In this document: in pieces, positions 11,391 through 41,670 of the stretch
Position numbering within the stretch: the stretch's first letter is position 1
How the letters are laid out: each line of letters opens with the position of its first letter
Made by a program: the position numbers and the translations under genes
Notes under the pieces: generated by a model
Database searches by the model: none
Told to the model about the DNA's origin: nothing
Seen by the model: the letters and a program-made list of their open reading frames with translations, nothing else
Assembly (NCBI GenBank): GCA_008632985.1
Contig: QPGO01000177.1
Span: forward strand, 62,001 to 126,000
Source: Psammoneis japonica
Taxonomy: Eukaryota
Reading direction: 5' to 3'
DNA: 64,000 nt

Positions 11391-11629
11391 GGCTGATTTT
11401 TTTTTGTTTCGTTTTTTGCGTCGGAGTTGGAGCGGTCGGACGAGTCAAACACAGTCGCGCGAGGAATCTCTACACGGTAGTCTATGTACCGTATGATAGG
11501 CCCTATTCCTACCGGCATCGGCAGGAGCCCGAAAGCGAACTCCCAGAACACTCAAACGCCTGTTCAATTTCCATGACTTTGCGGCTGTGACCGATGGCAC
11601 ACATGATAAGTGCAGGCCTGCAAATCTAA

Positions 11630-12510
11630 ATCAAACTGTGACAACAATGGATGAATGTGCTGGACCTTGTGGGCCTTGTGCGTTTGCCGGGAAAGAAGGG
11701 AGACGAGACTGTGCTCGCATCAAAAAGAGCAGTGGCTGGCAAACTTGTCAGCGAGTGTGGTGGTTTGAGAACACAGCTGGCTTTTGTGTGGCAAACAGCA
11801 CCAGGCATGCAGGGAGAGAGAGGTTCTCTTTGCTTTTTTGTCAAAGCATGCCAGGCGCCACCAACACTGCAATGAGGAGCCGCGCAGCCAAAAATGCGAG
11901 CTCCGTCAAGCGCCTGCTGCGCCTCTCAAGGTCAGCCAAAGGTGGGGCAGCTTTTTTGCACATGAAAGCTGCCATGTCACAATGGTGCACTGAATGCCAA
12001 GTCAACAAAAAGCTGTCTCATGCTGGAGAGAGCCGCCCACAGCATCGAGCGTGTGTGTGGGTGGCAAAAAGATGTTTCTTTCTTTTCAGGCAGGCACCAC
12101 ATTCCTGTGGAAAAGATGAGGCTGAGTGCACCCATGAGATCATTGCCATCATCACTGCAAAGGTGACAATGGCTCTGTGCTTGCTTTTGTGCTCGCCAAT
12201 GCTGCTGCTTGTCTCGCACTGCTGGTGCGCTGCGACAGGAAACAGGAGCACGAGAAAAAATGAGTGAAAATTTTCTTGTTGTGGTGGCCAAAAATTCCGG
12301 TTTTTCATTTTGGGGTTTGTTGTTGATTGCACCCCATCTCTTGGGTGCTGTGAGTTATTAATGCCACATTCAATCTTTGCACATGACAGGCCCAGTGCCA
12401 TGATGCATGCACCGGTGGCAGTTTTTGACGACGCACCGACCCCCAGCTAGCACGCACGACCGCACGACACGCGACACGCACGCGGACACGCACGCGCACA
12501 CGCACAATTT
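11630..12510. other. TpA-depleted block B (short relic; CpG partly retained)
   Basis: No TpA from about 11631 to 12355 although CpGs persist. Ends in an ACGCAC-rich tract at about 12428-12505. Confidence 0.8.
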
Positions 12511-12535
12511 TCAATTTTTCTCGAATGCAACGGCA

Positions 12536-16447: not shown

Positions 16448-19400
16448 ATGAACAACAACACTACTACTGTCCCTGTCGCTCCAGCGTTACGTCCCGTTTT
16501 GCCCAGTCATGGAACGGCCAAGGTGAAATCGGTCCAATCCGGTGATACCGTCGTCTTGTTGGGCAAGGCTCCATCTCCCAATGCACCACCACCTCAAGTG
16601 GTTTTTACCTTTGAACGCGTCACGGCACCGAGGTAAAGTAATTTTGTAGTCGTATTTTTATATTCAATTTGTACAAATTTCTTATTCAATATTTTTTGTT
16701 CTTTCCAAACAACAGAATGGCATCCAAAGCCAATGCCAATCGTGATGACCCCGGTGCCTTTCCGGCACGAGAATGGTTGAGAAATTTGATTGTTGGCAAA
16801 TCGGTTCAATTTGAAACGCGGTACGTGGAGAGGAGGAGGAGTGGGGTTGATTTATGCATATCTTTATGTGTTCAACTCACCTATTTTTCTTTCGTTACTC
16901 GTCACTCACCTCATATTTCACAGCAAACAAGGTGCTACAGCGGGTGATCGTGTGTATGGTTTGCTCTTTTATACAGATCCCAATTCGGGTCAAGTCTTGA
17001 ATTTGGCTGTAGAGAGTGTTCGAAACGGTCATTGCATTCCCAAAGTGTTTGGATTGACGGATGATGCGACAGAAGACACTACGAATGGCGAAGCCGCCGT
17101 GGATGATTACGAAGCACAATTGCAAGCGGCTCTCAATCAAGCCAAACAAGCCAATGTCGGTGTCCACGGCAGTGCACCACTGGTTCGTACGATTCAAAAT
17201 GCCGGTGAATCCTTTGAAACATTGGCATTGATTCAACAAGCGAAAAAATTGTGCAATTCCACTATTTCGTGTGTCATTGAATACATTTTTGATGGATCAC
17301 GGTTTCGTATACAAGTGACGGACCCCGAAATGCAAAATTTGCAATACGCCAGTTTTACCTTGTTGTTGGCGGGCGTTTCGTGTCCACGCATGGCCAATCC
17401 CAAACTCGATACGCCCAGTGAAGAATTGGCCGAGGAGGCACTCCAATTTGTCAATGTCCGATTGTTGCATCGTGAATTGAAAATTACATTGCACGGAACT
17501 GACAAGGCGGGTATCTGTGCCGTGGGGACCGTTCATCATCCTCGTGGGAACATTGCCGTGGAACTACTCAAGAATGGATTGGCCAAAACGTCCGATTGGA
17601 GTATCCGACTCATGGATCCCAGTGATGTGCCAGCCTTGAGAATTGCAGAAAACAATGCAAAGGTAAAGTGTTGTGGAGTAGTGATTTGTTTTGCTGTAAC
17701 GTTGAATACAACTTGTTTTACTCACACGCTTTCTATTCTCTCTCTCTCTACACACACAACACAGAGGACAAACACGGGCGTGTGGCATTCGTACGCTCCA
17801 CCGCAATTATCGGGTGCATCCGAAATTGTCGGAACTGTCGTGGAAGTCATCACGGGCGACACTCTATCGATTCTCCCCAATGGCGTGGCATATGATTCGG
17901 AATCCAAACTCGAAAAGGTATCCCTGGCCAGTGTCCGTGCACCCCGTGTTGGCAATGAAAAACTGGGGAGGGTGGATGAACCCTATGCATGGGAATGCAA
18001 GGATCGTTTGCGTGTCTTGACAGTGGGCAAACCCGTCAAGGTGTCGATTCATTATGAACGTGATATTCCCATGGGACCCGACAGTACGGAAAAGAGACAA
18101 TTTGGTACAGTTTCGGTGGGTAAACGAGAAGATGTTGGTGAAGTACTTGTGGCGGAAGGATTGGCCACGACCCAGAGGCATCGTGATGATGATGAAAAGT
18201 CACCGCGTTATGATTTGCTTGTGGCGGCAGAAGTGAGTATTTTTTTATTTTTTGTAGTGGTTTGATGAGTGTTTTGATTTGACTGACCCATCCTGTTTCC
18301 CAATTCGTACTATGCATTGACAGGCCAACGCCAAGGCTGCGAAAAAGGGCATTCACATTACAGACAAACAGTACGGCCGACGCGCTGTGAACGATTTGAC
18401 AGATCCCAAAAAAGCCAAGGCCTATTCTGGATCACTGATGCGTGCCGGCAACATCAAAGCCATTGTCGAATACGTCTTTAATGGATCACGTTTCAAGCTG
18501 CTGGTTCCGTCCGAAAATTGCAACATTGTCTTTGCCGCATCCAGTCTTCGTTGTCCTCAGCCATCACCCACCATGGGCAGTCGCACCACCAAGGCGGCCG
18601 AACCCTTTGGAGATGCCTCGAAACGTCATGCGCGCTTGACCGTGTTGCAACGGTCGGTCGAAATTGTGTGTACCGGAGTGTCCATGGGCGGTGTCATTAC
18701 AGGACAAATCTTTGTCGGACACGGAGGTCAGCGTCGAGATTACAGTTTGGAACTGGTCGGTGCCGGTCTGGCCACGTTGGATCCGCGCAAGGTGGAGTAC
18801 GGAGAAGTACCCAAAATGCTGGTGGATGCTCAAAATGCTGCCAAGAATAACAAGGTTGGAATTTGGTCTCTTGTACAGGCTACGCCAGAGGTAAGTAGTT
18901 TTATTGTTGTTGTCTTTCTGTTGGTATTGTGGTAATCATGTTGACGGTCATGTAATAATCTCATTGCTGTCTAATTTTTTTTGTCAACAGGCCAAACCAG
19001 TCGTGACTACCAAGGCCAAGGAGCAAACCATTCAAATTCGACTCAGCGAAATCAAGAGTGGAAATCACTTTTTCTTTCAAAAAGTTGACGACGAGGCTGC
19101 CAAAGTCATGGACGAAAGCATGAAGATTTTCACTTCCAACAATGGCACCAACGGAGCTCCGTGTGATGTCAAGGTGGGCAAGGTAGTGGCTGCCTTGTTT
19201 AACGATGGCAGTGGCAAGAGCTGGTACCGTGCCAAGATTATCGAGCGGCCCGCCGCAGGCAAGGCCCGAGTGCTTTTCATTGACCACGGCAATTCGGAAT
19301 TGGTTCCCGTCGCTACCCATTTGCGCCCCTTGGATGCCAGTCTCGGCACGGAGCGTGTCCCTGCCGTGGCCAAGGAAGCCCAGCTTGCCCTGACGGTTGT

Positions 19401-19743
19401 GCGTCCCTTGTCGGACGATGAAGGCATGGACGCGGCCAGGATGCTTCAGAGTTTGGCGTGGGGCAAGGATCTGACCGCTCGTACCTTTAGCGATATTGAC
19501 GGAAAGCTTGCTGTGGTCCTCATGGATGAGAGCGATACATCCATTAATGAGCAACTTGTGGCTGCTGGACTCGCTCGTACAGTCAAGCAAACCGATGTAG
19601 ATTATCTGGAATCGAAAATGTTGGACGGCAATAGCCTGGCGAGCTTGTCTGCGGAATTGAAGGTTGCCCAGGAAACGGCTCGCAAATCTCGTGCTGGAAT
19701 GTGGCGATACGGAGATGTTGGCGACGAAGACGAGGAAGAGTAG
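16448..19743 (+). CDS. SND1: Tudor staphylococcal nuclease (Tudor-SN/p100), about 6 exons
   Basis: Four SNase repeats (VKSVQSGDT, IEYIFDGSRF, VVEVITGDT, VEYVFNGSRF), a Tudor domain (WYRAKI..VLFIDHGN) and C-terminal GMWRYGD. GT-AG introns lie at the ORF junctions. Confidence 0.93.
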
Positions 19744-21096: not shown

Positions 21097-21702
21097 ATTT
21101 GTTGTTGTAACAAGATCGTTGCGTTTATCGTTCTCCTTTTTTTTTTTTCGACTCGTGTTTTTTGTTGTTTTCGGCGCGCGTGGTCTCGAATGACTCCGGG
21201 GTCATTAGACCTATTTGATGATGTGAGTCGTACGTACGTACTTGTACTACTGTACGCGTACGTACGTGGAATGATGACTGCGATACATCGTTTATGGAAT
21301 ATAGACATAAAGACTTGAGCATTATTAAAATAATCAAAGTCATTACAAAATATCAATTGTTATTGAAGAGAGCGGCAAGACGAAACGGCACTTTTTTGTT
21401 TCCCTTTTTCGCATTCACAACTTCGCGTTTTTCGTTTGTCGTCTCGCGAGATTACCCCCTTGTTCGATCGATCGAGAATCAAGTAGAAAAGATTTATCAA
21501 GTTTGTAACACCGCGAGTGTGGCAACGAAAGATCATGACACCCTTTACTGCATCGCTCATAAGTCGACGCGAAGACTCGTCCCATGCCTCCTTAAGTAAC
21601 GCGGGTTCTCGGTTTGATTCGCGATCTTGGTCGATCGTGCACGATAAATCGCCCTGACGTGCTTCGATGCTAATTTTTTTTTGACAAAGCGAAAAAGGCC
21701 GT

Positions 21703-24700
21703 GTGAAGCGTTCGGCAATGGCACTTCGAAGGAAGCAAATGGCGTTCATAATGAAGCTGCCTTTCCTGCTGTGCATCTTGCTGTGTGTTCCGTTCTCACA
21801 GGCTCAAAGAAGTTCGATTCTAGGAATTGCTGAAAACAAGGGGTTTACTACGCTTGTAACGGCTCTTGAGGCTGCTGGCCTTGACTTTGAGTTTAGTTGC
21901 ACATTTAGTCGGAATAAGGAAGACTGCCCTCTTTATTCTTTCTTTGCTCCTAACGAAGAAGCGTTCTCCGCACTGGACAAGGATTTAGTGAACAAACTAA
22001 CGTCTGGTCCATACGTTGAGCACCTACGTGGCTTTCTCAATTACCATGTTCTGCCGGGCAAAGTGAGAGCTACTCCATTTCATATCCAAGACGGGGCAAG
22101 AGTTGAGACTCTCCTTGGTGAGAGCATTGTAACCACCAAGAATGGCAAAGACGTAATGATCAACAACGCCAAGGTCTTGACGGCCAACATTGGTGCGACC
22201 AACGGTTTAGTACATGTTGTGGATACCGTCCTTTTGCCCAAGTTTCTGTCAAAAGACGTTGTCGATGTCGCCATCACCAGCCCCGACACATTCTCAACGT
22301 TTGTAGCAGCTGCGAATGCCGCGGGATTGCTGGACGCGCTTCGGGGTGGACCAATCACGGTACTCATACCCACGAACGATGCCATGGCCAAGATCGGGTC
22401 AACCCTTACAGACCTTCTTAAGCCCGAGAACAAGGAGAAACTTGCAGAATTCGTTCAATATCATATTTTGCCAGGCATTGTCGCTCAAGACAAACTCGAA
22501 GACGGACCAGTAGGGACGTTGCTCGGAAAAGATATCGTTGTAGATGTGCGGAGTGACAAGGTTGTCCTCAATGGTGAAGCCCAAATCACGGACTTCAACA
22601 TCTTGGCAAAAACCGGTATTATTCACGAGATTGACACAGTTCTCACCCCTCCGGAACCAACGCCCGACCCAAAGCCAGACATTGTCGACGTCGCCATCAG
22701 AGACGACAGATTATCAACGCTTGTCCAGGCTATTTCGGCGGCTGGGATGGTCGACACACTCAAATCAACCGGGCCGATCACAGTATTCGCACCGACGGAT
22801 GCGTCATTCGCCAAGCTCGGGCCAACCCTTACCGACCTTCTTAAGCCCGAAAACAAAGAGGAACTTCAAGAGATCCTTCAATATCATGTTGTACCCGGAA
22901 TTGCCACCAAAGGGGGGCTGAAGGGAGGACCTATAGAGACGTTGCTTGGAGCCGAGATTGATGTAGATGTACAGGATGGCAATGTTGTTCTCAACGAGGG
23001 GGTAAAAGTCACAGACTTCAACATTTTAGCAACGAACGGCATCATTCACATTATCGACACAGTGCTCATCCCGTCAGCACCACTGCCAGACCCAAAGCCC
23101 GACATTGTTGACTTTGCAAAGTCAGACGAAAGGTTTTCTACCGCTGTCCAGGCCGTTTTGGAGTCTGGGCTGGTTGACACGCTCAAATCAACGGGGCCGT
23201 TCACGATGTTCCTACCAACCAATATGGCCTTCGCCAAACTCGGAGCTGACCTAGCCGACCTCCTCAAGCCCGAAAACAAGCAAGAACTTGAAAAAATCCT
23301 TCAATTTCATGTTTTGGAAGGCAATGTCACAAGAGAGGAACTCCAGAATGGACCTGTCAATACATTGTTGGGGGTAGATATTGAAGTAGCTGTTCAGAGC
23401 GACAGTGTTGTTCTCAACGGCGGAGCACAAGTCACAGACTTCGACATTTTGGCAATGAATGGAATTATCCACGTGATTGACACGGTCCTCCTTCCCCCGA
23501 AACAAATGCTTGATATCGTTGACTTTGCTAGCTCAGACGAAAGATTTTCTACTCTTGGCCAGGCCGTTTCGGCAGCAGGGTTGGTCGACACGCTCAAATC
23601 AACAGGTCCATTCACGATATTCCTACCAACCAATACGGCATTCGCCAAACTCGGCACGGACCTAGCCGCCCTTCTCAAGCCAGAAAACAAACAAAAACTC
23701 GCAGAAATCCTTCAATATCATGTTTTGGACGGCAATTTTACTAAAGAGGAACTCGAAAATGGACCTGTCGTTACTCGGTTGGGCAAAGCCATTGACGTAA
23801 GCCTTCAAAGTGACATGGTTGTTCTCAACGACGAAGTCAAAGTCACAGACTTCAACATTATGGCCAAGAACGGAGTGATTCACGTAATTGACACGGTCCT
23901 TCTTCCTCCAGACGTATTAGCACCGCCTGCCGAAGAACCTGACGTTGTTGATGTCGCTAGCTCTCTCGGATACTATTCCTTTCTTGTAGAGGCTATGTTC
24001 ACTACTGGCTTGGTCGAGAAGCTGAGATCAACTGAACCTTTAACGATTCTAGCACCCACTGACAACGCTTTCACAAGGGCTTTGAGAGAGCTTGGGCTTA
24101 CCTTGCCTGAACTTTTTCAGGAAGAGAACAGAGATACCCTCAAGAACATAATTCTTTATCACGTCATCCCGGGCGAAGTCACACGTGCCGACCTTCGCGA
24201 TGGCCCGTTAACCACGCAACTTAATATCGACATTGATGTTGATGTCGAGTACAACGCCGCGGGGAGCTTCAAATTCGCCAAACTCAACGGTGAAACACGA
24301 ATAACCGGTTTTGATACCAAGGCAAAGAACGGCATCATCCATAGAATTAACAACATCCTGATGCCTCCGAAAGTACTTTCTGACATTGTTCAAGTCGTCA
24401 GTGCCAAAGATCGGTTCTCGAACTTAGCGGCTGCTGCCGAAGCAGCCGGTTTGGTTGACATGCTAAAATCAGATGGACCGTTTACCATATTCGCGCCTTC
24501 AAACGAAGCTTTTGCCAAGCTCGGGACAACTCTGGCCGAGCTCATAAAACCGGAAAACAAACAGAAACTTGAAGAAATCATTCAATATCACATACTGCCA
24601 GGCCGAGTTGTTCGGGAACAACTCAAAGATGGCCCGGCCATGACATTGCTTGCTGATACTATTGACGTGGATGTTCAGAGCGACAGCGTTGTGCTCAACG

Positions 24701-27700
24701 GCGGGGTACAAGTCACAGACTTCAACATCTTGGCGAAGAATGGAATTGTTCACGTCATTGACACGGTTCTCCTTCCACCGGAAAGAATGCTTGACATTCT
24801 TGACTTTGCCCGCTCAGACGAAAGATTTTCTACTCTTGTCCAGGCTGTCTCGGCGGCGGGGTTGGTTGAAACGCTCAAATCAGATGGGCCGTTGACGATA
24901 TTTTTACCAACCAATACGGCATTCGCCAAACTCGGCCCAGACCTAGCCGACCTTCTCAAGCCAGAAAACAAACAAGAACTTGCAGATATCCTTCAATATC
25001 ATGCTTTGGACGGCAACATCACTAAGGAGGAACTCGAGAATGGACCTGCAGAGACTTTGCTGGGCAAAACTATTGACGTCAATTTGCAGAGTGACATGGT
25101 TGTTCTCAACAGCGGCGTCCGGGTTACAGATTTCAACATTTTGGCAAAGAACGGAATCATTCACGTAATTGACACGATCCTTCTTCCTCCAGAACCATCA
25201 GCACCGCCGAAACCAGGACCTGACGTTGTTGACGTCGCTAGCTCTCTCGGATACTATTCCATTCTCGTAGAGGCTGCGTGGACGGCTGGCTTAATTGACA
25301 CGCTCAGATCAGCTGGGAAGTTAACGCTGCTAGCACCAACGAACAATGCGTTTGAGCGAGCTGTGAAAGAGCTTGAGCTCAAGATGGACGACCTTCTCAA
25401 GGAAGCGAACAGAGAAACCCTCAAGAAGATACTTCTTTATCACGTCCTTCCGCGGGAAGTTACCCGTGCCGATCTTCAAGATGGTCCGGTTGCAACAGCA
25501 CTGGAAGGCGAAACAATAGATGTTGATATCGAGTACAACGCCGCGGGGGGTTTCAAGTATGCGAAACTCAATGAGGACGCGCGCATCACACGATTTAATA
25601 CCAAGGCGTCGAACGGAATCATTCATCGAGTTAACGAGGTCCTGATTCCCCCGGAAGCGCTCCCAGATATTGTTGAGGTTGCTAGCTCGAATAGCCTATT
25701 CTCGACCCTTGCGGCAGCTGTCGAGGCAGCCGGTTTGGTGGACGCTCTTCGCGAGGGGGCGTTCACTTTGCTTGCACCCACTTCTGAAGCATTTGCCAAG
25801 CTCGGACCAACCCTTTCCGACCTTTTAAAGCCGGAGAACAAGCAGAAACTTGCAGAAATCCTTCAGTATCACATATTGCCAGGAACCGTCGCCCAGAAAG
25901 AACTCAAAGAAGGACCGGTCAAGACGTTGCTGGGCAAGAATATTGATATAACTATGCAGGATGACAAGGTTGTTCTCAACGGCGGGGTCCAAGTCATGGA
26001 TTTCAACATTTTGGCAAAGAACGGCATGATACATGCCATTGACACGGTTCTCTTACCACCGGAACCAATGCTTGACATCGTTGACTTTGTCAGCTCAGAC
26101 GAAAGATTTTCCACTCTTGCCCAGGCTGTTTCGGCGGCTGGGTTGACAGACACGCTCAAGTCAACCGGTCCGTTCACTTTATTCGTACCAACAGACGAGG
26201 TTTTCGCCAAGCTCGGAACAACCCTTACGGACCTTCTTAAACCCGAAAACAAACAAAAGCTGGCAGAGATTCTCGAGTATCATGTTTTATCAGGAAACAT
26301 CACCAAGGAGGAACTCCAGAATGGACCTGTCGCGACGTTGTTGGGCAAAAATATCGATGTAGATGTGCAAGGAGACATGGTTGTGCTCAACAATGGCGTC
26401 AAAGTCAATGATTTCAATATAATGGCAAAGAACGGAATCATTCACGTGATTGACACGGTTCTCCTCCCACCGGAACCAATGCTTGACATTGTTGACCGTG
26501 CTAGCTCAGATGAAAGACTTTCCACTTTTGTCCAGGCAGTTTTGAAGGCGGGGTGGGGTGGCCCGCTACAGCTAGCCGGGCCGTTCACAATATTTGCTCC
26601 AACCAACATCGCATTCGCCAAGCTCGGAACGGACCTAACCAACCTGTTCAAGCCTGAATATAAAACAAGGCTGGTAGAGATTCTCCAGTATCATGTTGTG
26701 CCTGGAAATGTCACTAAGGAGGAACTCGAGAATGGACCTGTCGGGACTTTGCTGGGGGAAGCTATTGACGTCGCTCTGGAGAATGACATGGCTGTTCTCA
26801 ACGGCGGAGCCAAAATCACAGACTTCGACTTATTGGCCAAGAACGGAGTGATTCACGTTATTGACACGGTCCTCATTCCTCCAATAATACCAGCACCGCC
26901 TGACGAAGAACCTGACATTGTAGACATTGCTAGTTCTCATGGATACTATTCAATCCTCGTTGATGCTGTGTCGACCGCTGGATTCGTTGATTTGCTCAAG
27001 TCGGACGGACCGTACACCTTGCTGGCGCCAACAAATAGGGCCTTCGCACAGACTTTGAAAGGGCTTGGCATTACGTTGGACGAGCTTCTCTCGGAAAAAT
27101 ACAGAGAAACCCTCAAGAACATACTTCGTTATCACGTCATTCCAGGAGAAGTTTCCCGAGCTGATCTTCGTGACGGCAAATTAGCCACAGGACTCGCAAA
27201 CAAGAATATTGAAGTCGATGTCAAGTACAACAGGGCTGGGAAATTCAGGGTAGCCTTGATCAATGGCGACGTTCGCATGACTGCTTTTGATACCAAGGCA
27301 AAGAACGGAATCATTCACAGAATCAACAAGGTTTTGATTCCTCCGAAAGACGTTCCGCCAGAACCTCTTCCGGATATTTACCGAGTCATCAGATCTAGGG
27401 GCCGTTTCTCCTTCTCGATCCTGGTCAAAGCCGTAAGGGCGGCTGGCTTGGTGAAAACCCTCCAATCTAACGGGCCCTATACTCTTTTCAGCCCCACAAA
27501 TTATGCCTTCAAAAGCCTATTGGACAGGCTTGATATCACGTTGGAAGAGCTTGTGGCAGATGTCGATACTCTTACCAAGATTCTTCTCTATCATGTCGTT
27601 CCCAGAAGAGTCAGCTATGCTGATCTGAGGCGAGGGTCGCTCGAAACTGCTCTTAGGGGGGAAGCCGTCCAAGTTAATGTTCAGTACGATCGGCTCAACA

Positions 27701-27927
27701 AGCCAGTGCGAGTATCTGTGAACCATGTTGACATTATTGCTACCGACATTGAAGCATCCAACGGTATCGTGCACGTCATTGACCACGTCCTTGTGCCGCC
27801 CGACCTTTTTAAGGTGGAAGAAAGTAGTCATAGCAGAAGCAGTACCAGAAGCAGCTCCGGAAGTAGTAGCGGTAAGAAGGGCAAAGGCGGCAAGCGCAGA
27901 AAGCTTGCGAAAGGCAGCAGTAGATAG
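21703..27927 (+). CDS. Giant secreted fasciclin (FAS1) protein with 14 tandem FAS1 domains
   Basis: Signal peptide and 14 repeats with H1 (TIFAPTNxAF) and H2 (NGIIHVIDTVL) motifs. S/G/K-rich tail. True start may be one of the downstream ATGs (21718-21751). Confidence 0.95.
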   Translation: MKRSAMALRRKQMAFIMKLPFLLCILLCVPFSQAQRSSILGIAENKGFTTLVTALEAAGLDFEFSCTFSRNKEDCPLYSFFAPNEEAFSALDKDLVNKLTSGPYVEHLRGFLNYHVLPGKVRATPFHIQDGARVETLLGESIVTTKNGKDVMINNAKVLTANIGATNGLVHVVDTVLLPKFLSKDVVDVAITSPDTFSTFVAAANAAGLLDALRGGPITVLIPTNDAMAKIGSTLTDLLKPENKEKLAEFVQYHILPGIVAQDKLEDGPVGTLLGKDIVVDVRSDKVVLNGEAQITDFNILAKTGIIHEIDTVLTPPEPTPDPKPDIVDVAIRDDRLSTLVQAISAAGMVDTLKSTGPITVFAPTDASFAKLGPTLTDLLKPENKEELQEILQYHVVPGIATKGGLKGGPIETLLGAEIDVDVQDGNVVLNEGVKVTDFNILATNGIIHIIDTVLIPSAPLPDPKPDIVDFAKSDERFSTAVQAVLESGLVDTLKSTGPFTMFLPTNMAFAKLGADLADLLKPENKQELEKILQFHVLEGNVTREELQNGPVNTLLGVDIEVAVQSDSVVLNGGAQVTDFDILAMNGIIHVIDTVLLPPKQMLDIVDFASSDERFSTLGQAVSAAGLVDTLKSTGPFTIFLPTNTAFAKLGTDLAALLKPENKQKLAEILQYHVLDGNFTKEELENGPVVTRLGKAIDVSLQSDMVVLNDEVKVTDFNIMAKNGVIHVIDTVLLPPDVLAPPAEEPDVVDVASSLGYYSFLVEAMFTTGLVEKLRSTEPLTILAPTDNAFTRALRELGLTLPELFQEENRDTLKNIILYHVIPGEVTRADLRDGPLTTQLNIDIDVDVEYNAAGSFKFAKLNGETRITGFDTKAKNGIIHRINNILMPPKVLSDIVQVVSAKDRFSNLAAAAEAAGLVDMLKSDGPFTIFAPSNEAFAKLGTTLAELIKPENKQKLEEIIQYHILPGRVVREQLKDGPAMTLLADTIDVDVQSDSVVLNGGVQVTDFNILAKNGIVHVIDTVLLPPERMLDILDFARSDERFSTLVQAVSAAGLVETLKSDGPLTIFLPTNTAFAKLGPDLADLLKPENKQELADILQYHALDGNITKEELENGPAETLLGKTIDVNLQSDMVVLNSGVRVTDFNILAKNGIIHVIDTILLPPEPSAPPKPGPDVVDVASSLGYYSILVEAAWTAGLIDTLRSAGKLTLLAPTNNAFERAVKELELKMDDLLKEANRETLKKILLYHVLPREVTRADLQDGPVATALEGETIDVDIEYNAAGGFKYAKLNEDARITRFNTKASNGIIHRVNEVLIPPEALPDIVEVASSNSLFSTLAAAVEAAGLVDALREGAFTLLAPTSEAFAKLGPTLSDLLKPENKQKLAEILQYHILPGTVAQKELKEGPVKTLLGKNIDITMQDDKVVLNGGVQVMDFNILAKNGMIHAIDTVLLPPEPMLDIVDFVSSDERFSTLAQAVSAAGLTDTLKSTGPFTLFVPTDEVFAKLGTTLTDLLKPENKQKLAEILEYHVLSGNITKEELQNGPVATLLGKNIDVDVQGDMVVLNNGVKVNDFNIMAKNGIIHVIDTVLLPPEPMLDIVDRASSDERLSTFVQAVLKAGWGGPLQLAGPFTIFAPTNIAFAKLGTDLTNLFKPEYKTRLVEILQYHVVPGNVTKEELENGPVGTLLGEAIDVALENDMAVLNGGAKITDFDLLAKNGVIHVIDTVLIPPIIPAPPDEEPDIVDIASSHGYYSILVDAVSTAGFVDLLKSDGPYTLLAPTNRAFAQTLKGLGITLDELLSEKYRETLKNILRYHVIPGEVSRADLRDGKLATGLANKNIEVDVKYNRAGKFRVALINGDVRMTAFDTKAKNGIIHRINKVLIPPKDVPPEPLPDIYRVIRSRGRFSFSILVKAVRAAGLVKTLQSNGPYTLFSPTNYAFKSLLDRLDITLEELVADVDTLTKILLYHVVPRRVSYADLRRGSLETALRGEAVQVNVQYDRLNKPVRVSVNHVDIIATDIEASNGIVHVIDHVLVPPDLFKVEESSHSRSSTRSSSGSSSGKKGKGGKRRKLAKGSSR

Positions 27928-28439
27928 TTTGAGAAAGATTTTGTTTTGGGTGTACATAAGTAGTAACATTTCAGCATGATCGTGTTTCTTCCCTTTCTCA
28001 CAAGGTTCCAAGACACTCTAAGAGTAGTCCCATTACCAGTTGTACTCCAATCAGAAACGACCGCTTCACTTTTCCCAACGTATTGATGGAAACGAAAAAG
28101 ATGCGCTAGTATCACCGTTCCAGGACGCCACACCTCCCTTTCTTTTGAATGTTGTCAGCCATATTCTTGCATTTTTACAATCGCTTTTCATGCCTTGTGC
28201 ACGACGAACTTCGCACCACGATGACATCAGAGGAGGTTAAGAGAAGGAACCACATCGTCGCAGCCGATGTGCCTCTCCCGCCCTGAGCATGAACGACGTC
28301 GGAAGCAGCCTTGCAAAATGCTGTTCAGGCGGGCGTGCTTTGAAAGAGACCGAAGACATTGCGATTGCATGCACGACACGCACGGCACGACGGGTGACTG
28401 TGAAATGCCAATGCAGTTGCCAACGGGGAGAAAACCTCG

Positions 28440-29800
28440 TCTCCAGAGGCACTTGCAAGGCAGATGTCTCTCACCACACCAGCAACGTTTGACAACTTTT
28501 GGAGCTCAGCTCTGGTGGCAGGCCGCTTCAACGGCAGCTCCACACTCAACTCATTCTTTGCTTTCAGCTGGTGCATGGCCACACCACAACTCTCGTTGCA
28601 GGGAGTGTCCCCATTGGGGCACTTGTGCCAGAGACTGGGCCAAGAACCACCACAGTTGTGTGCGTGTCCTTCACAACTTTGTGCATTGCCAAAATGGCAC
28701 TGTCAAAATGAGCTTTTTTCTCATGGAGGACCCCTTTTTCTTGAGCTCTTTTGCCTGTTTGTCCAAGCTGCTCAGCAAGAAGCAGGCACAACAACATTGG
28801 CCAAGGCAGCAAGCCTTTTGTGGTGGCTTTGTCAGCAGCTGGCTGTTGCTGCTGCTGCTGTGGCTGATGTTGTCATGTAAAAAGATCTCAGCAGAGGAGG
28901 GCAGACAAGTTGAGTCAAAGGGCTGGTTTTGGGTTGGCTTGTCTTGACATCTCTCATTCTTTCTTGGTCATTTTCAGGCTCTCTCTCAGTGGCCTCCCTG
29001 TTTGTGGTCTGGCAGGATGAGAGAAGGAAGGTCAAGCTGTAGCAGGCAATTGTGTGGTTGAGCCCAATGTTTTGTTGGTTGTGTTGCCCTCATCATTTGG
29101 GGTGCAGCAGCTCTCCAGTCAAAGCTCTGGCCCTGGTGGTTCCCTGGGTGCCCATGGCTTGCACACCACAACCCCAGCCAAAGAGATTCACAGAGAGGGC
29201 AGTCAGTTGGCAATTCTTGTTTGGCGTGTGTTCCATGGTGGTCATGGTGATTGCAAACAAGACAGAAAAACAGCTGTGTGTGACAAAGATGATGATTTCA
29301 ACATGCAGAAAAATGTGGCCAAATCACCACACACAATGGGTGCCAAAATGTGGCTGCATTGAGGAAAACAAACAGTGCACTGCTGCCCACAACTTTGCAA
29401 ACTGCTGGCATGGGGATGATCTGATGGCATCTGGGACAGATGGTGGTCATGTGCCAGAGGAGAAAGAAAGTGAGCAAAGGAGAGATCATTGGATCTCTCC
29501 AGTCTGTCCATGCCAGTCTGTCCAACACAAGGGAGTGTGCTCGCTGTCTTGGATGTCTGTCAGAGATGGTGGCCTGTGCGCCCCCTCTGTTTCATGTTGC
29601 AGCTTTTGCATTGTCTTGTGTGGTGCAGAAGCATTGCATGAAGCTGTGAGCATCAGCGGACCTGCAGCAACCTCACTTTTTTCTTCCATCATTGTGCATT
29701 GATGAGGGACACAAGAGCTTGAGCACTTGCTTGCAGCCTGCGATGCACGCTTTGCACCCTTTGTAACATTGGCCCTCTGTGAGCCAAAGCTCTGCAGTTC
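28440..29800 (-). pseudogene. Decayed paralog of the ZNFX1-like gene 3' end (RZ finger, RING-like and NF-X1 regions)
   Basis: Minus strand reads QAKELK..AMH..HNCGGSWPSLWHKCPNG..CGVAM..VAGVVRDI versus QAEELN..AMH..YNYGGSWSSHWYECPNG..CGMAM..VGGVVRDI in the 41671 copy (firm for 28464-28790). Weaker matches further on: CPLCESL~CPDCRSL, DPMI~DPII. Confidence 0.8.
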
Positions 29801-30089
29801 TGGGCTCCCCACAGAAATTTGAGCTGCAGCTCAAGGTCTGGGGTTCAGTGTTTGTGGCTTGTGCAGTTGCATGCTGCAACCAACCTGAGCACTCATCCAC
29901 AAACATCAAAGCCACAATGAGCATCTGGTCTGCTGGGAATTTTCCTCAATCAAGGCAGCAAAATCTCCATTGACAGACAGATGCAACACATGGAAAAGAT
30001 GCCAGAGCATGCACAAAATGTGTTCTTACCTGACAATTGTGCAGCCCCTGCTCTGCAGAGTGGCAAAGGCAACCAAGCGTGCAGTGCAT

Positions 30090-31800
30090 CAAGTGCAAGA
30101 CTTTGCCAAGATGTGACAAGCTGTGCTTGTCAGTGGTGTGAAAGGCAAAGCAGTTTTTCTCCTTTCTGGGCTGGTTGTGCACAAAATGACTCTTGTTCAT
30201 CTGGATCCATTTGCTTGCACAGCAAAAATGTGTGAGGGTTGTCTTTGCACAGCACACCCTGCAGGCACTTTGCATCAAACAATTTGCAAATGCTCTGTGC
30301 TTGGTCTCCTTGCACTTCTTGGTTGGGGTCAAATGAGCATCTGTGCCACCCACCAGCAATCCACATGCATCAAAATCATGCGGAAGCATTTTGACAAGCA
30401 GCAGCTGATGGTGAGGGCAGACAAACCACTCTGCAGTCATTTTCAATTGGCCTTTCTGCCAGAAACTCATGGAAGTCCTTTTCACACTCTGTGGCCACCA
30501 TTGCAACCATTGCACACTCTCCATGTGTTGACAACAACCATCTCAAAGACTGAGAAATGAGTGCAGTTGGACCAGCCCTGGGTGCCCAACTTCTGTTTAA
30601 TCTGCAGGTTGCCTTGCCTGCTCCTGTTGTGCTGATCAATCTTTTTGCAAGTGTTGCAGAATTTGTCAAGCTCTTTCCACTCAGGGTCAGCACCCATGCT
30701 GACTTCCTCATCCTGGTGCCAATGACCAACAAACCCTTGAGAGCTTGCCATTCCTGTGTCATCCAGTGACAAAGTGTTGGCAATGGAAAGGTTCTTCCAA
30801 CCACAATCCATCCGGACAAAGGCAAGTTTATCTTCATGACTGTCCAGCCCCAAGGTGAGAACTCCTTGACATTGTCCACACTCGGCAAGCTCAATGCCAC
30901 AGAGATGCTGTGTTGCAACAAACTTCAGCATGACACAGCACAACCATCCAGCCCCAGTGTGATGGCTCCCTGGCATTGTCCATGCTTGGTGAGCTCAACA
31001 CCCTGGAGATGCTGCATCAGAAACTTCTGCATGGCAGTCTCAACAATGCCAACAAATCATGACCTGAAGCAGCACCCCACTTCTTTGACAGTGCCAAACA
31101 ATGCACAAATCTGTGCAGACAATCCAGTCCACATTGGCCCATGGCTGCACAAGTTGTCTCAAGCAACAGCTTCATGAAGCAAGCCACTGTTGTCCTTCCT
31201 AGATGCCAGCATCTTCCAACTTTGCTGTCTTCACCAACTTGAGCTTCAGCATTGCACCACTCTGCTCACATGCCAAATTCTGCATCTCACGTGCATCCTT
31301 GGGCTTGCAATCAACTGCATGCTGTGTGCTGTGGGAGGCCAACATTGATCCAGTGCCCACACCAAGACCACACCACCTTAAGATGGACTCATTGACACAA
31401 ATGTCAGTCAACTGCAAGAAGTTGGTTGTCCGGTTTTGTTTGAATGCCTCCACAAAGTCATCCACCAATTTCCAACTGCACTCTTGAGATGGCATTCCTT
31501 CTGCTGCTCGCTCATCTTGCTGATCACTGAACTGAGCTGAAATGTGCAAGATGTCAAAAACCTGTTTTGTGACATGCCAGTCTTTGCAAATGCCGGTGCT
31601 GCATGACACTTTGATGCGGTTTTGACCAGAGCTCCAACTTGGCATTGAACTCAAACATCATTGCAAGAATGCAAATGCATAAAAACTTCAGCAACTCAGA
31701 CAGATTGGTGTCAGCTGCTTTTCTTTTCCTCAGTTGCGTGCTGTTGGCAAGTGCAACAATTGCACTGAGATGGTTGGTCATGCCTCAATTGAGGTCCTTG
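30090..31800 (-). mobile_element. Decayed piggyBac-family transposase (stramenopile type)
   Basis: Fragments ELLKFL..MFEF..LWS, WKLVDDFVEAF, ICVNESILRWCGLG, LKLKLVKT, LAFVRMD, IDQHNRSRQ..LGTQGWS, HLTPTKK and a Cys-rich tail occur in piggyBac transposase order. Multiple frameshifts; no intact TTAA/TIR found. Confidence 0.85.
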
Positions 31801-32009
31801 GTAGACTGGACACTGGCACTGGCTACCACAGAGACTGCTGGCCACTAGAGAGAGGAGAGAAGAGTCGGAGAGGGATAGAGGGCGATCGACTAGCGACTGC
31901 TGGGATCTTTCATCTTTCACGGGCGGATTGAACCTGTGGGCCGACCCGGCGCCTATCTCTGACCGCTTCAGCGTAACTACGAGTTCCAGCACTAATCCAA
32001 CAGTTGAGC

Positions 32010-32739
32010 ATCGAAAAATGCTTTGTTTGCCTTTCTTCGGCCTCTCTAAAGCTATCTAGAATTGCAATCCAACAATCACAGTTTACACCTAATACCATTC
32101 AAAAGCAACTTCTACGAATACTCGTTCCCCCCTAGAATGCAGCTGCACAATCTGGGAGAACGTAAACATTTTCTTCTTTCTCTTGCAACTTAAAACTACA
32201 AACTTGTGGTGGTGTATCCAGGGCGAGATGCAACACCAAACCGGTAGATGTGATCGAACGGCCTCCTCAAAACAAGTTGTGCGTCTCAGTTGTGACTCGT
32301 TGTAACGACAGGCCCTCCCACTGCTGATGAAATCCTCCTTCTACTCGCGGTAGAGTCCATTCGGACACCATTGTTATCGAAAAGCTTTGTTTGCCTTTCT
32401 TCGGCCTCCCTAAAGCTATCTAGAATTGCAATCCAACAATCACAGTTTACACCTAATACCATTCAAAAGCAACTTCTACGAATGCTCGTTCCCCTCTAGA
32501 ATGCAGCTGCACAATCTGGGAGAACATAAACATTTTCTTCCTTCTCCTGTAGCTTAAAACTCCAAACTTGTGGTGGTGTATCCAGGGCGAGATGCAACAC
32601 CAAACCGGTAGATGTGATCGAACGGCCTCCTCGAAACAAGTTGTGCGTCTCAGTTGTGACTCGTTGTAACGACAGGCCCTCCCACTGCTGATGAAATCCT
32701 CCTTCTACTCGCGGTAGAGTCCATTCGGACACCATTGTT
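32010..32739. repeat. Tandem duplication of about 365 bp (32010-32375 and 32376-32739) covering the VTC gene 3' end and 3' UTR
   Basis: Near-identical direct copies with junction ...caccattgtt|atcgaaaagc. The outer copy has a CGA->TGA stop on the minus strand. Confidence 0.95.
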
Positions 32740-35707: not shown

Positions 35708-36289
35708 TCAGTGAGTGGATAGCAAGGCTTTGAAATGTGAGAGGTGAGTGACGAAGTGAGTTGATTGTTTTTGTGATGCCTACGAACGAGCGATGACTGT
35801 CAGTAAAAGGATACCAGCATGACTTCTCTGCGGCATCATATGACATCATTTTCGAGTAGAACTCTACTGTGAACTGTACTACTGTAAAGTGGTCAAGGCA
35901 TAAATCTGAATCGTAATGTCTCGAAATCCAAGGGTCATTTATGTCTATTGCCTATACAAAACCTTGTTAGTCGTAGATTTGACACTTTGCGATACACTCT
36001 GTATTAAGAAATTAGAAGTAGTGATGATGAGCCGGAATCACTCTCGAGGTCTACGGAGAGCAAAAATATCTATAAGGAACATGTATGTTGAGGAAACACA
36101 GATCGTGCTTCCGGTTCTTTTGCCGTCGACAGAGCTCGCTACGAAGTGAATTCGGCGTTCTCGCTCCGCGTTCACCGTTACTCATCAAGGATAGGTGCAG
36201 TACACCGCGAGCCTGGCTTGCGTCGACTTCCCGGAAAGTGACATCATACATCGTCATTCCACCAATCAAATGAAGGGATTTTTTGCGTA

Positions 36290-39200
36290 GCCTTCATTGA
36301 CATTTTCGTGACGCACCCTTTGGGTTTCGCAACGAACAACGTGACTTCCCTTTTGGTCTTGTGGGTCAAAGATGGATTGCAGGTTTGTGGTCGATTTCAT
36401 CATCCGGAGCTTGCAATGAATGGGTTGGGGACTTCCAAAAAAAGCAGATGCGGGCCAGCACTCCATCGCGACTTTAAAAAAAGCGTGCCGCACAGCAGAC
36501 CTGCAGACAAAGTGCAATGAGCTGCCATGTGGCAGAGCTGAGCAGAGCTCCTCATTTGCAGTGTCACACAGTGCACAAGTTGGGCTGGAGCACAGGTGCA
36601 AGCCACGTGCCACAGACCAGCTTCTCCCCATGTCTTGTCTCCCACTTTCAAGCTGCCAGACAAAGCTTTGAACTCTCGCGCAACAGCAAGGACGGACAAC
36701 TGAGTGAGAACCAAACACACAATGAGAGCTCAAAATTGTTGCACACAGCAAGTCGGCATGAAAGTGGCTCTGGTGTGCCCAACAATGAGGATGAGGGCAA
36801 GACCAATCATGCTCAAACTGCAAGTGCACACAACCAAATGGAGGGGCCAATGCACCGCAACAGCCCAAAATTGTTCACAAAAGCCAGCTCAGCAGGACTT
36901 TTTTGTCAAGCTCCAAGTGCAGCCATGGCATGCAAACAATGTGAAAGCAGTCCTGGAGCACACCCAACAATGAGATGAGCATGAGATTGATCATGCTCAA
37001 CTCCAAGGATGCACAACCAAATGAATCACACACACTGATGTTGTCCAAACTTGTTGTGCGAGAGCCAATCTGGATGTTTTTGTCAAGTTCCAAGCAGAGC
37101 CATCATGCACAAACAACATGAAACTGGCTCCAGCACACCCCAACAATGAGCCAAACAAACAAATGTTTGCCCATTTTTGCTGAGCTCACTCCAAGCCCAG
37201 CTGCTGCACACAAACAATGCAAAAGTGGCTTGATGTGCCCAAAAATGAGGACAAGCATGAGGTTGTCAATGAGAAGCACTTCCTGATGCAACCCAGAATG
37301 ATCAGCAGTGCCAGTCACTGACGTCAACCCCACAATCCACAGCTCAATCCATGTCGCTCAGAAAGCTTCAACAATGTGAACAACAAAATGTCAGCACCTT
37401 GCTCTGGAGCATGAGATGAAATGAACAACTGTGAGCAAGACAAGGGCAGGCAACAACACCCCCAAACACACCAAAGCACAACCCTGCTGCACCACAAGTC
37501 GCTTTTGATTTTCTCACCAAAGTGCCACAAACCACACGTGTGAGTCACAGGATGGGGGTTGTCAGTGGGATCAAGAGGTGGTCATCATTGAAGCAAGCAT
37601 CGAAGAGGTGAGCACCACCATTTTCACCGTTGATCATGATTTTTGAATTTGTGTGCTCATTGTTGGAAAAGTGACTGCACCGTGTGGGCATTTTGCTCAA
37701 ATTGCACAAATTTCATGCAACAAAATTTTGAAAAAATGCGCTGCCATCACAGCAATCATGCCATGCACTGTTTGAATCATGTTTTCTCAAAACTCTGCTT
37801 TTTGCTCAAACATGCCATGTTTGAGCAAATGGGGCTCAACATTTGAGCAATCACTCAAACACATGCATTTTTTGAGCAATTGCTCAAACGTGCTGCTCAA
37901 ATTTTGAAAGAAAGAGTCGCAAGCAATTGAGTCCATTGCCCACATTTTTTTGTGCACATGTTCACAATCTTAAAATGCACACAAGTCATTGAAATGACTG
38001 CAATCAGCCATTCTCAGGAATGTTCCTGGTGCTGCATCAACTTGTGTGTGCACATCAACTTGCATGTGCAAGGTGCAGTGTCAGCACACTTCTTCTTTGC
38101 CTTTGCTTCTGGCCTCCAATGCACCCCACACTCTGTTCTTACACCCTCCAGCTTCGGTGGCACCCCAATTGTTCTAAACATGTGGCACTGTGCAGGCAGC
38201 TGCATGGGCATTGGCGCAAAATGGCACTTGTTGTTGTTTGAAAACCCACAGAGCCAAGTGCCACAAAAGCACTTCTTGCTCTGTTCACATTTTCCCATCA
38301 ACCTGAAAATGGCAGGAATGATGCTGCAGTGCCCTCATTTCAGCAGCTGGCAAAGATGACGGGGGGGGGGGGGGGGGGGGCACAGATTACAACCTCAGCT
38401 GCTGATCCACAAAAAAGCCCCACAATGTGTTGCTGGGTGATCAGCAAAAAAGGCACTTGTTTCAGCGGCTGCATCTCATCACACCCCTGCAAATTTTTTA
38501 GAGTGTCAGCAATGCAAAGAGAGAAAAAGTTCACTGCTTGTGAAATGACCCTGTCAGACCAAGCACATCATCAGCAAATGGCAGCCATGAAGCCCAAGCA
38601 AAAGGCACCCCATGGCAGCAAGACACGCCAATGCTTTTTGCCAAGAAGAAGCTGCTTGAGAATGCTGCAGTCAAGTGCAAGATTTTGACATCACATGTTC
38701 CAGCAAGAGGTGCACAATGCCACTGTCCACCACTGGTGGAAGGTTGGGTGGCAGCTGCCCTCTGGACAGAGGACACAAGTGCTGTGAGGGCTCCACACAG
38801 GGAGGTTCAGAAGGCTCAGAACTGGAAAGCTTGCTTTTCCAAAATGAGAACCAAGTGTGCAGAATGAGGTGTCATGGCAGAAGGCAACAAGACTTGGCGG
38901 CCCTCTCTTGGGGTCACCCCACTTCTGCTGGTCTTGTGCACTTCCTTGTTGCTGTGTTTGACCCTCCCTTGATCAGAGAACACAGCATCATTGTCAGCAA
39001 TGGAGGCCAACACACCAATGGCAGGGACAATGGAGGAATGAGACAGCACAGGGGAAGGTGGCCACATGCAGTGCAAGAGCAAACCACTGAAGAAAACAAC
39101 ACATGTTGCCAACATTGCTCTGCACCCCTGGAAAGCTTGCTGGACAAATGGAGTGCAACCTGGAGTGAGTCAGCATTGGAAGCCGGCAAATGCTTGGCAG

Positions 39201-41558
39201 GCAAGTGTCCCAACAATTTGCCACTGGAAGAGTTGGTGTGCTTGTCAATCTGGCACACTTCCTTTGCACCACATTGCTCCCTCCCCTGATCAGAAAATGA
39301 AGGATCATTGGCAGTGATGATGGGCAGGTCCAGAGTGCCATGAAAAGCAAATTTAGATGTGACACAACAGTCCTGACAATGGAGAAAAGGCAGCAAGACT
39401 TGGTGGCCCTCTTTCATGGCCGCCCCGCTTCTGTCAGGCTTGCTCAGATGATGGAACAAGGAATGACGGCATCGCACATCCAAAATTGATGACAGCCGAG
39501 GCAAAAATCTGAAGTTGAGAGACTTGACAACTGGCAATGTGGTGATGATGTGCATCAGTGGCATGCAACAGCATTGCAGGGGCTGCAGGCAGCACAGGCA
39601 CTGTCTTGGGAGGAGACGACAATTCCTCTGTCTTGTGAATGATGCCACCATTGCATGAGACAATGGAGTGACCAGGAACAAGATGCTTTGTGGGTTGAAG
39701 CAAGACACCCTTGATGTTGCAGGGATGTTCCACTGACTTGGCAGGCAATGTCAGGAAACCAGTGCCAACAGTGACAGCAGATGGCATGCCCATTGGCACC
39801 ATGAAAAAATCATCCATGCCAGCTGCAGAAGGATTCCCATCCAAAGACTGCAGAGGTCAAGGCACTTTGAGGAATGAAAACTTGGCAGTGGAAAACTCAT
39901 TCCAGCCCCAATGATTGCATTCCACGTTTGGATCAAAGCGCACATGCAAAACGCGGATCGCAATGATTGCTGCTGTCTCTTGCATCTTGAGGGTCTCTTT
40001 TGGATTGCCACCTAAAGACTCTGGAGAGCAAGACAAGTTTTGTGGAATTCCCCTGGCATGACAACTTGCAAGTCAGCTTTGCAAACAATCAATTTAACCA
40101 AAGAGACATCATGGGGGTGCATGACAAAAGGTGGGATGCCACATTGGGCAACAGGGTCATGGAAGAGCTGTGCAAAAGAGCTCTTGGGTTTGGTGTGATT
40201 CACACCTGCAAAGAAACAGTCAAGATCAACAATTGAGCCTGCACAGTGCATGTTCAAATGCTGCTGAACAAGAGGTTCAGCATCATGACCACAAAAAATG
40301 CACTGAACATTGGGCAAAAATGCCCGTGTGGGCATCTGCAATGTCATCTGGCATCAAGCTGACACTTCTGCATGGAGCATCCCATTGGTGAATGTCACAA
40401 GGCAAAGTGACCTGATGGCAATGATCTTTGGATGCAGTGGGCTCAATGGGGCTCAATGGGCTCTCCATGACACCTGTCACATGCCATGTGTGGCATTGGA
40501 CATCCTCACATGAGTCCACAACAAGATCAGATGTGAAAATTGATGGAGGAGTTTTCTCCAACAATGGCAGAGACAAAACCACTTGGTCAGATGCTTGTGG
40601 TGCAAGGGAGAGCTGGCTTCAGTCTGTGTGATGCCATTGCAGATCAGAGTTGAAGCACATGTGCTCCATGCCAACTGCAATTCATGCTGGCTCTGTCATC
40701 TTGCCAGTGTGGAGAGCAAGTTGGATCTTCTGCTCAAGCGTTTGTCTGGAGAGGCAAGATGTAGAATTGCAAACACTTGGAGCCACAACCTTGAGAGCAG
40801 CTTGGCTGAAGATCAATGCAACAGATGCTGCATCCTTGGGGGTCCTCACACAAGGTGTGATGAACTTGTGAAGGTCATGGTCCCGCACAAGCTCGAAAAC
40901 ACCATCCTTGGCTTGGGTGTGTTTGTTGTCTTCAAAAAACTGATCCAGGTCAAAAATTGTGTCGCCACAAGTTTGCTCAGGAACTTCATGTCATCAGGGA
41001 AATGAGGGCTTTCCTGAAAAACAAAATCAGTTGCAGCGAGTGTGTCAATGATGCTCTTTTCAATCATTGCGATCCGTCATGATGGTGCAAGTGCACAAAA
41101 TTTTTTGATCATGCACACGCAGAAACCTGGTGCTGGTCTGGCAGGGGGCCTGTGAGCCAATGAAACAAGCACTTCCAGGATCAAAACTGGTGGCATGCTT
41201 GTTCAGCTCACAAACCACCCAAAGGAATCTTGGCGCGGGAGTTTCAGTGCAGAGGAACAATGAGAGAGAAGCAGATCTCAGAAAGATCTGCTTGTCTGTC
41301 TGGGTCTGTCCTTCATCCGCATGCTGGCAGCTGCGCTGGTGTTGCCTGTTGTTGCCACCCACATCGCACCCTTGTGACTCTGCTCAATTTACACATGGTG
41401 GTCTGTGTGATGCTTTTTGGCATCTTTTGGCTTTGCTTCCAAACAATGCTCTGCTCAACGCTCATCAGGGGTGCAACGGAAGTCGGCAAAATGGCAATGC
41501 GAAATGCTGTTCCGGCGGGCATGCTTTGAAAGAGACAGACGGACACACACGCATGCTC
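36290..41558. other. TpA/CpG-depleted hypermutated block D (decayed coding relics, degenerate repeats, probable TE end)
   Basis: About 11 TpA in 5.3 kb. Abrupt right edge at ...gcatgctcgt|actgtattgttattacg. Contains a G20 run at 38361-38380. Confidence 0.88.
37690..37905. repeat. Cluster of direct and inverted TTTGAGCAA/TTGCTCAAA motifs (subterminal-repeat-like)
   Basis: About 8 full or partial copies in both orientations, including the palindrome tttgagcaattgctcaaa. Confidence 0.7.
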
Positions 41559-41670
41559 GTACTGTATTGTTATTACGCACGATACCGGTAGATCTATCAC
41601 GAACTCTAAAGAAAAGATGCAGCGAACCATGGTTGCTCCATGGCAATGCTGTAGCTACCGGGGGTGCTGG

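Follow-up and report, generated by a model that had tools for sequence, protein, structure and literature searches.

Why has one of two copies of a short coding stretch lost every TpA and every CpG that the other copy contains? The question was raised by a 51-base segment of a decayed ZNFX1-like copy in the Psammoneis japonica genome, whose counterpart lies in an expressed ZNFX1-like gene on the same 64,000-nt stretch of DNA (the window, which is the whole of the DNA analyzed here). The answer favored by the present analysis is that silent, repeat-containing blocks of this DNA underwent regional conversion of TpA and CpG to TpG and CpA, at the DNA level and after duplication, via two processes (probability about 0.7). 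The features on which this reading is based are collected in Table 1.

Table 1. Positions of the features discussed in the text (window coordinates).
Feature	Position	Strand	Remarks
Depleted block 1	1-2662		TA 9, CG 20, CA 319, TG 320; extends past the window start
Short TpA-free spacer, 730 nt	11627-12356		Low segment 11609-12298: TA 1, CG 20 in 690 nt
Alignable relic of ZNFX1-like paralog (RZ finger and 3' flank), pseudogene	28295-28757	-	Local alignment; 0 TpA in the aligned part
Depleted block 2	28392-31866		TA 12, CG 23, CA 411, TG 408; TpA-free zone from 28239
Flagged stretch, RZ-finger core of decayed copy	28610-28660	-	HNCGGSWPSLWHKCPNG
High-copy core in block 2	29447-29562		Word depth up to ~20,000 vs ~60 for single copy
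Depleted block 3	36406-41484		TA 11, CG 56, CA 636, TG 553; TpA-free until 41559
Part of the expressed gene homologous to the relic	41479-41955	-	Last coding part, 3' UTR and ~90 bp past the transcript contig end
Expressed ZNFX1-like gene (AAA_11/AAA_12 helicase, NFX1-type fingers, RZ finger)	41671-47210	-	Pfam, spliced X2 contig
GT..AG introns of the expressed gene	42829-42905 (77 nt); 43005-43067 (63 nt)		Skipped in the X2 contig

The decayed copy and its expressed homolog

The flagged stretch paired without gaps with positions 41821-41871 of the expressed gene, as the preliminary description had stated, and 13 of the 51 sites differed. All five TpA of the expressed copy were altered in the decayed copy (four to TG and one to CA), as were all three of its CpG (two to CA and one to TG), so that the losses first reported for both dinucleotides were reproduced; the remaining five differences were three A>G changes not in a TpA and two T>A changes. 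When 13 changes were placed at random, the probability that all eight dinucleotides were struck was 3.5e-4, and the probability that at least 8 changes fell within the 16 TpA/CpG positions was 0.0098. The minus-strand peptides, YNYGGSWSSHWYECPNG in the expressed copy and HNCGGSWPSLWHKCPNG in the decayed copy, were those already given in that description.

The full extent of the relic was found with transition-tolerant local alignment. The two regions were aligned over 438 ungapped columns with 69.6% identity, and they were separated by indels and transversions as well. Over this alignable region (~460 bp) the bias held for TpA: none of the 22 TpA of the homolog was kept, vs 194 of 374 dinucleotides other than TA and CG (Fisher p = 2.8e-7), and in the relic these 22 sites read TG (seven), CA (six), TC (four) or were scattered among other states. 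For CpG, 7 of 22 were kept and the bias was not significant (p = 0.08). The relic is located in the margin of block 2, where TpA was erased fully and CpG in part (about two thirds lost).

A longer correspondence, between 28290-29800 and 41470-43200, had been proposed at first, but no alignment exists past ~28757: neither blastn and tblastn nor purine/pyrimidine diagonal scans nor a six-frame search with a family HMM gave relic homology beyond this point. The only match of the family HMM (30 members) in block 2 was the RZ core (E = 2e-4), with no upstream protein part. The claim that a host-gene duplicate had been struck thus stands in a restricted sense; the idea of a full paralog has to be given up, as what is present is a 3' relic. 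Moreover, the neighboring expressed gene need not be the parent of the relic, because the two are just 70% identical.

In the decayed RZ finger, three invariant residues of the PNGH-x-x-x-I-G motif were replaced (H by D, I by N and G by E), and the second half of the finger was lost. The invariant RZ residues (W-x-x-C-P-N-G-H, I-G-x-C-G and C-x-E-C-G) were not retained, and the decayed copy had no Pfam match at E <= 0.01. With these residues gone, the copy is a pseudogene and cannot encode a working RZ finger. A 42-nt element was also observed (28312-28353 and 41498-41539), with 90% identity vs 70% for the surrounding alignment; it is placed past the transcript contig end, and these two copies are the only ones in the window.

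The expressed gene carries an SF1 helicase core and an RZ finger (Pfam PF20173), and its Pfam matches were AAA_12 (E = 1.7e-39), AAA_11 (E = 6.2e-32) and ZnF_RZ (E = 1.6e-22). It is called expressed on the basis of run X2, which is labeled 'DNA?' but behaves like cDNA; the X2 contig covered 41567-42828, 42906-43004 and 43068-47500. Within the blocks there was no X2 cover except two partial matches of ~40 nt, and this cover was not used as evidence. In BLASTP, the gene (window 42906-45779) was 54% identical to a 1,788-aa protein of Fistulifera solaris, which was also matched by two tblastn segments (50 and 46% identity, residues 40-1781); the other best named helicase relatives were from Epithemia (48%) and Cylindrotheca (47%). 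By these relatives, the window was assigned to a raphid pennate diatom that is not close to the named genomes.

An in-frame TAA (45780-45782, minus strand) directly followed by ATG was found in this expressed, 'unconverted' copy. The DNA contigs and the cDNA-like contigs both contain it, and three orthologs of ~1,780 aa align across it (47018-42906); a nonsense allele of recent origin, a split of the gene and read-through are possible explanations. Elsewhere in the window, a single 2,080-aa ORF with 14 fasciclin domains and internal repeats of 411-423 nt was observed (21685-27927), as well as a Tudor-SN-type gene (SNase repeats and a Tudor domain) over three ORFs (16790-19743) and a VTC gene with a Cyclotella match (43%).

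Direction of change

The last exon of the expressed gene (385 aa) was compared by phmmer with 1.84 billion representative proteins, which gave 2,282 matches at E <= 0.001, and 30 proteins whose C-terminus was covered were picked from the best 150 of these for the family alignment. At all six residues altered in the decayed copy, the expressed copy carried the family majority among the 30 proteins: Y in 22, Y in 25, S in 23, H in 29, Y in 19 (with F in the other 11) and E in 25. The first of these Tyr is natively His in 3 of the 30 relatives, which is a caveat for the outgroup at this site. At the DNA level, 20 related metagenomic loci (11 distinct stretches) had TAY at the three Tyr codons in 14, 17 and 20 cases, and the CAC, TGT and AAG found in the decayed copy were absent from these loci at the three codons so altered. 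The TpA-containing state had been taken as ancestral in the preliminary description, and both sets of outgroups back this: they place the TpA/CpG state as ancestral and the decayed copy as derived. The comparison of proteins and loci therefore supports a change that ran from TpA/CpG toward TpG/CpA in the decayed copy.

Composition of the depleted blocks

The relic belongs to a regional pattern. Three blocks, 11.2 kb in total (block 2 being 3.5 kb), were depleted of both dinucleotides, and this erasure of TpA and CpG is real and strong. In the block cores the observed/expected ratios were ~0.04 for TpA, ~0.12 for CpG and ~1.9 for CpA/TpG, and the corresponding ratios in the other 51 kb were 0.55, 1.00 and 1.17. 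Seventeen TpA-free gaps of at least 250 nt were found in the window, the longest of 1,496 nt; 14 of these were in the three blocks, one in the spacer and two elsewhere. When the frequencies of the other 51 kb were subtracted from those of the cores (9.2 kb), the deficit in CG (-0.051) and TA (-0.035) was matched by the gain in CA (+0.047) and TG (+0.045), with base composition equal to the third decimal; G+C was 0.482 in the blocks and 0.480 outside. GC-biased gene conversion was considered and rejected, G+C being unchanged in the blocks.

The two rules TA>TG/CA and CG>TG/CA were simulated on non-block DNA, and the resulting trinucleotide spectrum was correlated with that of the blocks at r = 0.96, vs r = 0.68 for the unmutated DNA. 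The simulation gave a G+C of 0.461 vs 0.482 in the blocks, which also show an excess of GCA/TGC/AGC/GCT; because of this mismatch and this excess, the two-rule model is incomplete or the source sequences of the blocks differed.

The counts of CA and TG were near equal in the blocks, i.e., TpG and CpA took the place of CpG symmetrically. When the order of CA and TG was subjected to runs tests, the three blocks gave z = -0.44, 0.80 and 2.53, the last of which denotes over-alternation and not clustering. Both strands were struck equally, without processive tracts. Among the 24 residual TpA in the block cores, none was preceded by A (28% elsewhere) and one was followed by T (25% elsewhere), and half were TTA or TAA. 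This hints that ATA/TAT were converted fastest, and it may indicate which sequences the TpA process prefers.

The three blocks were compared with one another, and nowhere did their similarity exceed that of shuffled controls. The 94 block ORFs contained no credible Pfam domain and no transposon protein domain; matches to SapA and IPT were rejected since they were weak and below their cut-offs. There was no Rfam match and no tRNA anywhere in the window. Free of TAA and TAG, the stretches 28200-31900 and 36200-41500 hold 75 overlapping false ORFs of 70-278 aa in six frames. The 20 related metagenomic loci (~122 kb) had no depleted block and no TpA-free gap longer than 207 nt; they give no comparative support, but this tells little because these contigs are mostly gene-rich.

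Sequence support, repeats and timing

The blocks were compared with contigs of exact 31-letter words from the public run X1 (depth 55-65, ~60 being single copy), whose sample may be the source of the assembly and is not an independent isolate. The contigs showed 0-1 differences from the blocks, and a single contig spanned 27501-29486, linking the fasciclin gene to block 2; this agreement means that the pattern is no long-read base-calling artefact.

Inside the blocks, word depth rose to 2,094 (28835-29501), 755, 366 and 534, and to ~20,000 at 29490. Parts of the blocks are high-copy repeats, the word 'repeat' being used here on the basis of depth. In the core of ~115 bp with the highest depth, most of the ~300 other copies carry CG at the sites that are TG (29490) and CA (29524) in the window. 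This core contains a short hairpin (GGAGAGATC / GATCTCTCC), and it could be an element of the MITE-like or terminal-repeat kind. At a loose contig end, other copies read TCTAAT and TCTAGG where the window reads TCTGAT and TCTGGG.

Between the window and other copies, 40 differences were listed, and these were grouped into 33 events: five adjacent CA<->TG double switches, ten links between TA/CG and TG/CA, six other transitions, ten transversions and two other doubles. In the ten TA/CG-TG/CA links, the window was derived in five and the other copy in five. A CA<->TG switch is what an ancestral TpA or CpG leaves when it is resolved independently in two copies, and conversion therefore post-dates the separation of the copies. 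Each copy was converted independently, after duplication, and conversion is still partial in some copies.

Regional limits and alternative explanations

The depleted zones had sharp edges. In block 3, the zone without TpA extends to 41559, which is 8 nt short of the transcript contig end (41567), and TpA resumes at 41560; in block 2, the zone starts one base after the last TpA (28238), and the contig of the fasciclin transcript stops at 28257. Both TpA edges thus lie within 20 nt of mRNA 3' ends, a sharpness (<20 nt) that is finer than a nucleosome and unusual for a chromatin-domain process. The CpG boundary was softer than the TpA boundary and lay 200-500 bp deeper inside the block: at the margin of block 2, CpG remained dense to ~28440, with the final one at 28663, and at the margin of block 3, CpG recovered from ~41040 and TpA only from 41560. 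The spacer had lost TpA, with CpG only about halved. Its neighbors are a leishmanolysin-like gene on one side and a glutaminyl cyclase gene on the other, and 48 nt separate its end from the start of the next long same-strand ORF downstream (12404-13006); it probably includes the promoter of the downstream gene and is therefore a poor fit to a simple rule of 'silent chromatin only'.

Sharp edges and near-saturation would also be expected from a RIP-like burst, in which a homology-triggered DNA deaminase targets adenine (in TpA) and cytosine (in CpG) during the sexual cycle, and the blocks do contain repeated DNA and a gene duplicate. However, the changes were not clustered by strand, and TpA and CpG were lost over different footprints. 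Duplicates close by were untouched: the tandem pair 32016-32315 / 32380-32679 (300 nt, 96% identical) has normal TpA and CpG, and the internal repeats of the fasciclin gene (64-81% identical) are unconverted. In addition, the edge at the expressed gene (41560) is inside the duplicated segment and not at the segment end. Because nearby duplicates were spared and an edge falls within a duplicated segment, a purely homology-triggered process is unlikely. The tandem pair itself was observed just outside block 2, overlapping the 3' end of a DUF202/VTC gene.

The blocks might also reflect a genome-wide context bias (fast TA>TG/CA and CG>TG/CA) that becomes visible in old neutral DNA, with the TpA and CpG of genes kept by selection. 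The relic is old (30% diverged), a TpA decay ~4 times the average rate would suffice for its losses, and the random interleaving of CA and TG fits slow independent events. Against this, unselected transcribed DNA was not depleted: the two introns of the expressed gene contain 8 TpA and 4 CpG in 140 nt, and its 104-nt 3' UTR contains 8 TpA, with none in the next 169 nt beyond. Genes had observed/expected ratios of ~1 for CpG and 0.4-0.65 for TpA, other stretches without long ORFs kept TpA at 0.5-0.8, and an equilibrium of 0.0024 for TpA vs 0.238 for CA+TG requires a loss/gain ratio near 100. Since unselected transcribed DNA was spared, this bias is considered an improbable cause.

If the elements had been hyper-edited at the RNA stage (ADAR-like A>I at UpA, with C>U as well) and had then entered the genome by reverse transcription, high-copy repeats would be struck, as parts of the blocks are, and ADAR-type enzymes do prefer a 5' U. 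To our knowledge, however, ADAR is confined to animals. The equal and unclustered CA and TG on both strands are not the strand-coordinated A>G clusters of such editing according to the runs tests, the relic reaches past the mRNA contig end, conversion crosses unrelated sequences up to the gene edges, and the CA<->TG switches between copies place it after copying. Editing of this kind is very improbable.

TpA and CpG are sites of base modification in some protists, and modified bases of silent DNA might have been misread in sequencing or assembly; but the X1 contigs agree with the window across all blocks, the relic and its homolog differ by indels and transversions, and no family domain survives in the blocks, so an artefact is scarcely credible. 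The reverse direction, i.e., that classical RIP (CpA>TpA) created the TpA of the expressed copy and that the old state survives in the decayed copy, can be entertained from two sequences, whose comparison by itself gives no direction, but it is refuted by the protein and DNA outgroups that have the TpA/CpG states, by a TpA ratio of the expressed gene like that of other genes, by an expressed frame that spans the ortholog length save for two spliced introns and one TAA, and by the invariant residues missing from the decayed copy.

Proposed course of the conversion

Regional conversion after duplication is thus the preferred reading. Two self-complementary pyrimidine-purine steps, TpA and CpG, would have been converted to TpG/CpA by transitions, in place on the DNA and following duplication or insertion; action at the DNA level is proposed because the homology of the relic extends ~90 bp past the mRNA contig end. 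The flagged RZ-finger end of a dead, truncated ZNFX1-like paralog would have been converted together with its block. At each site TG or CA would be chosen independently and with equal odds, on both strands and without processivity, and silent DNA would be the target, with exons, introns and UTRs spared.

The analysis establishes the pattern, its direction, its timing after duplication and its regional limits; methylation, the base modification and the enzyme are inferred. Two processes are proposed because the TpA and CpG footprints differ at the block margins and because the spacer was depleted fully in TpA alone. The first, acting in the block cores, would be the ordinary loss of methylated CpG through decay, and the CpG half of the pattern fits the decay of a presumed 5mC. 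The second would be a separate TpA-specific A:T-to-G:C process, more efficient and with a slightly wider footprint. As its basis we propose that TpA in silent chromatin is modified symmetrically, on thymine (of the 5hmU/5fU type) or on adenine, and the modified TpA would mispair or deaminate slowly, site by site. A symmetric modification is favored over a processive single-strand deaminase because the pattern is symmetric, site by site and chromatin-limited; a dedicated DNA adenine deaminase is possible. In dinoflagellates 5hmU prefers TpA, and trypanosomes carry base J in the TpA of their telomere repeats. The further step, that the diatom lineage has a new chromatin-targeted, TpA-specific DNA mutator or mutagenic base modification alongside CpG methylation decay, is put forward tentatively, as a possibility somewhat short of an even chance.

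Significance and comparison with known systems

The known permanent mutational inactivation of silent DNA is mainly that of fungal RIP and of CpG decay, both of which are cytosine-directed. No description of a joint erasure of TpA and CpG in repeats was found in the literature searched, which yielded only papers on RIP, CpG decay and viral dinucleotides. The regional erasure of both dinucleotides is apparently undescribed so far, and its TpA half appears to be without a described counterpart. If the reading is true, transposons, dead gene copies and some spacers would be permanently rewritten by A:T-to-G:C transitions, and this would be a second, independently evolved defence that mutates the silenced DNA outside fungi, as well as the first to act on A:T pairs. 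If TpA is removed in limited regions through A:T-to-G:C transitions, diatoms would have to possess a DNA modification or deaminase activity that has gone unrecognised, and a precise one, its edges being at transcript ends. In practical terms, blocks free of TAA and TAG yield long false ORFs, a trap for gene callers, and they mask transposon and pseudogene homology; their signature could also serve as a simple sequence-based map of silent chromatin in unstudied algae.

The expressed gene resembles the ZNFX1/NFX1-type RZ-finger helicases, and the flagged copy keeps just a degraded RZ core. As in the hyper-editing of retroelements by ADAR/APOBEC, context-dependent A>G and C>T changes are fixed in genomic repeats; whereas ADAR/APOBEC leave strand-coordinated clusters made before integration, the blocks were changed on both strands, site by site, after copying, and in non-retroelement DNA too.

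As in methylated-CpG decay in transposons (5mC deamination), which includes the CpG-context 'RIP-like' hypermutation of basidiomycetes (PMC3318451), CpG was replaced symmetrically by TpG/CpA in repeat-rich silent DNA. In contrast to that decay, TpA was erased more fully (0.04 vs 0.12 for CpG) and with a wider footprint. In PMC12695648, Phaeodactylum, the only diatom sampled, has 5mC and not 6mA.

RIP is restricted to C:G to T:A changes, most of them at CpA, and it creates TpA and lowers G+C (PMC2621366 and PMC7882544). The blocks resemble the products of RIP in Neurospora and other fungi in that permanent transitions occur only in silent or repeated DNA, duplicated genes are struck along with transposons, the dinucleotide context is specific and the regions have sharp edges. 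The chemistry differs: C:G to T:A transitions alone do not account for the relic, in which all 22 TpA of the homolog were lost, 13 of them to TG/CA, and the ratios of 0.04 for TpA and 1.9 for CpA/TpG are not those of a process that prefers CpA, raises TpA and lowers G+C. As regards a trigger by duplication, the blocks contain high-copy DNA, yet the nearly identical tandem pair and the fasciclin repeats were untouched. Unlike RIP, the blocks lose TpA by A:T to G:C changes with G+C unchanged and without strand clustering, and the tandem duplicates near them were spared.
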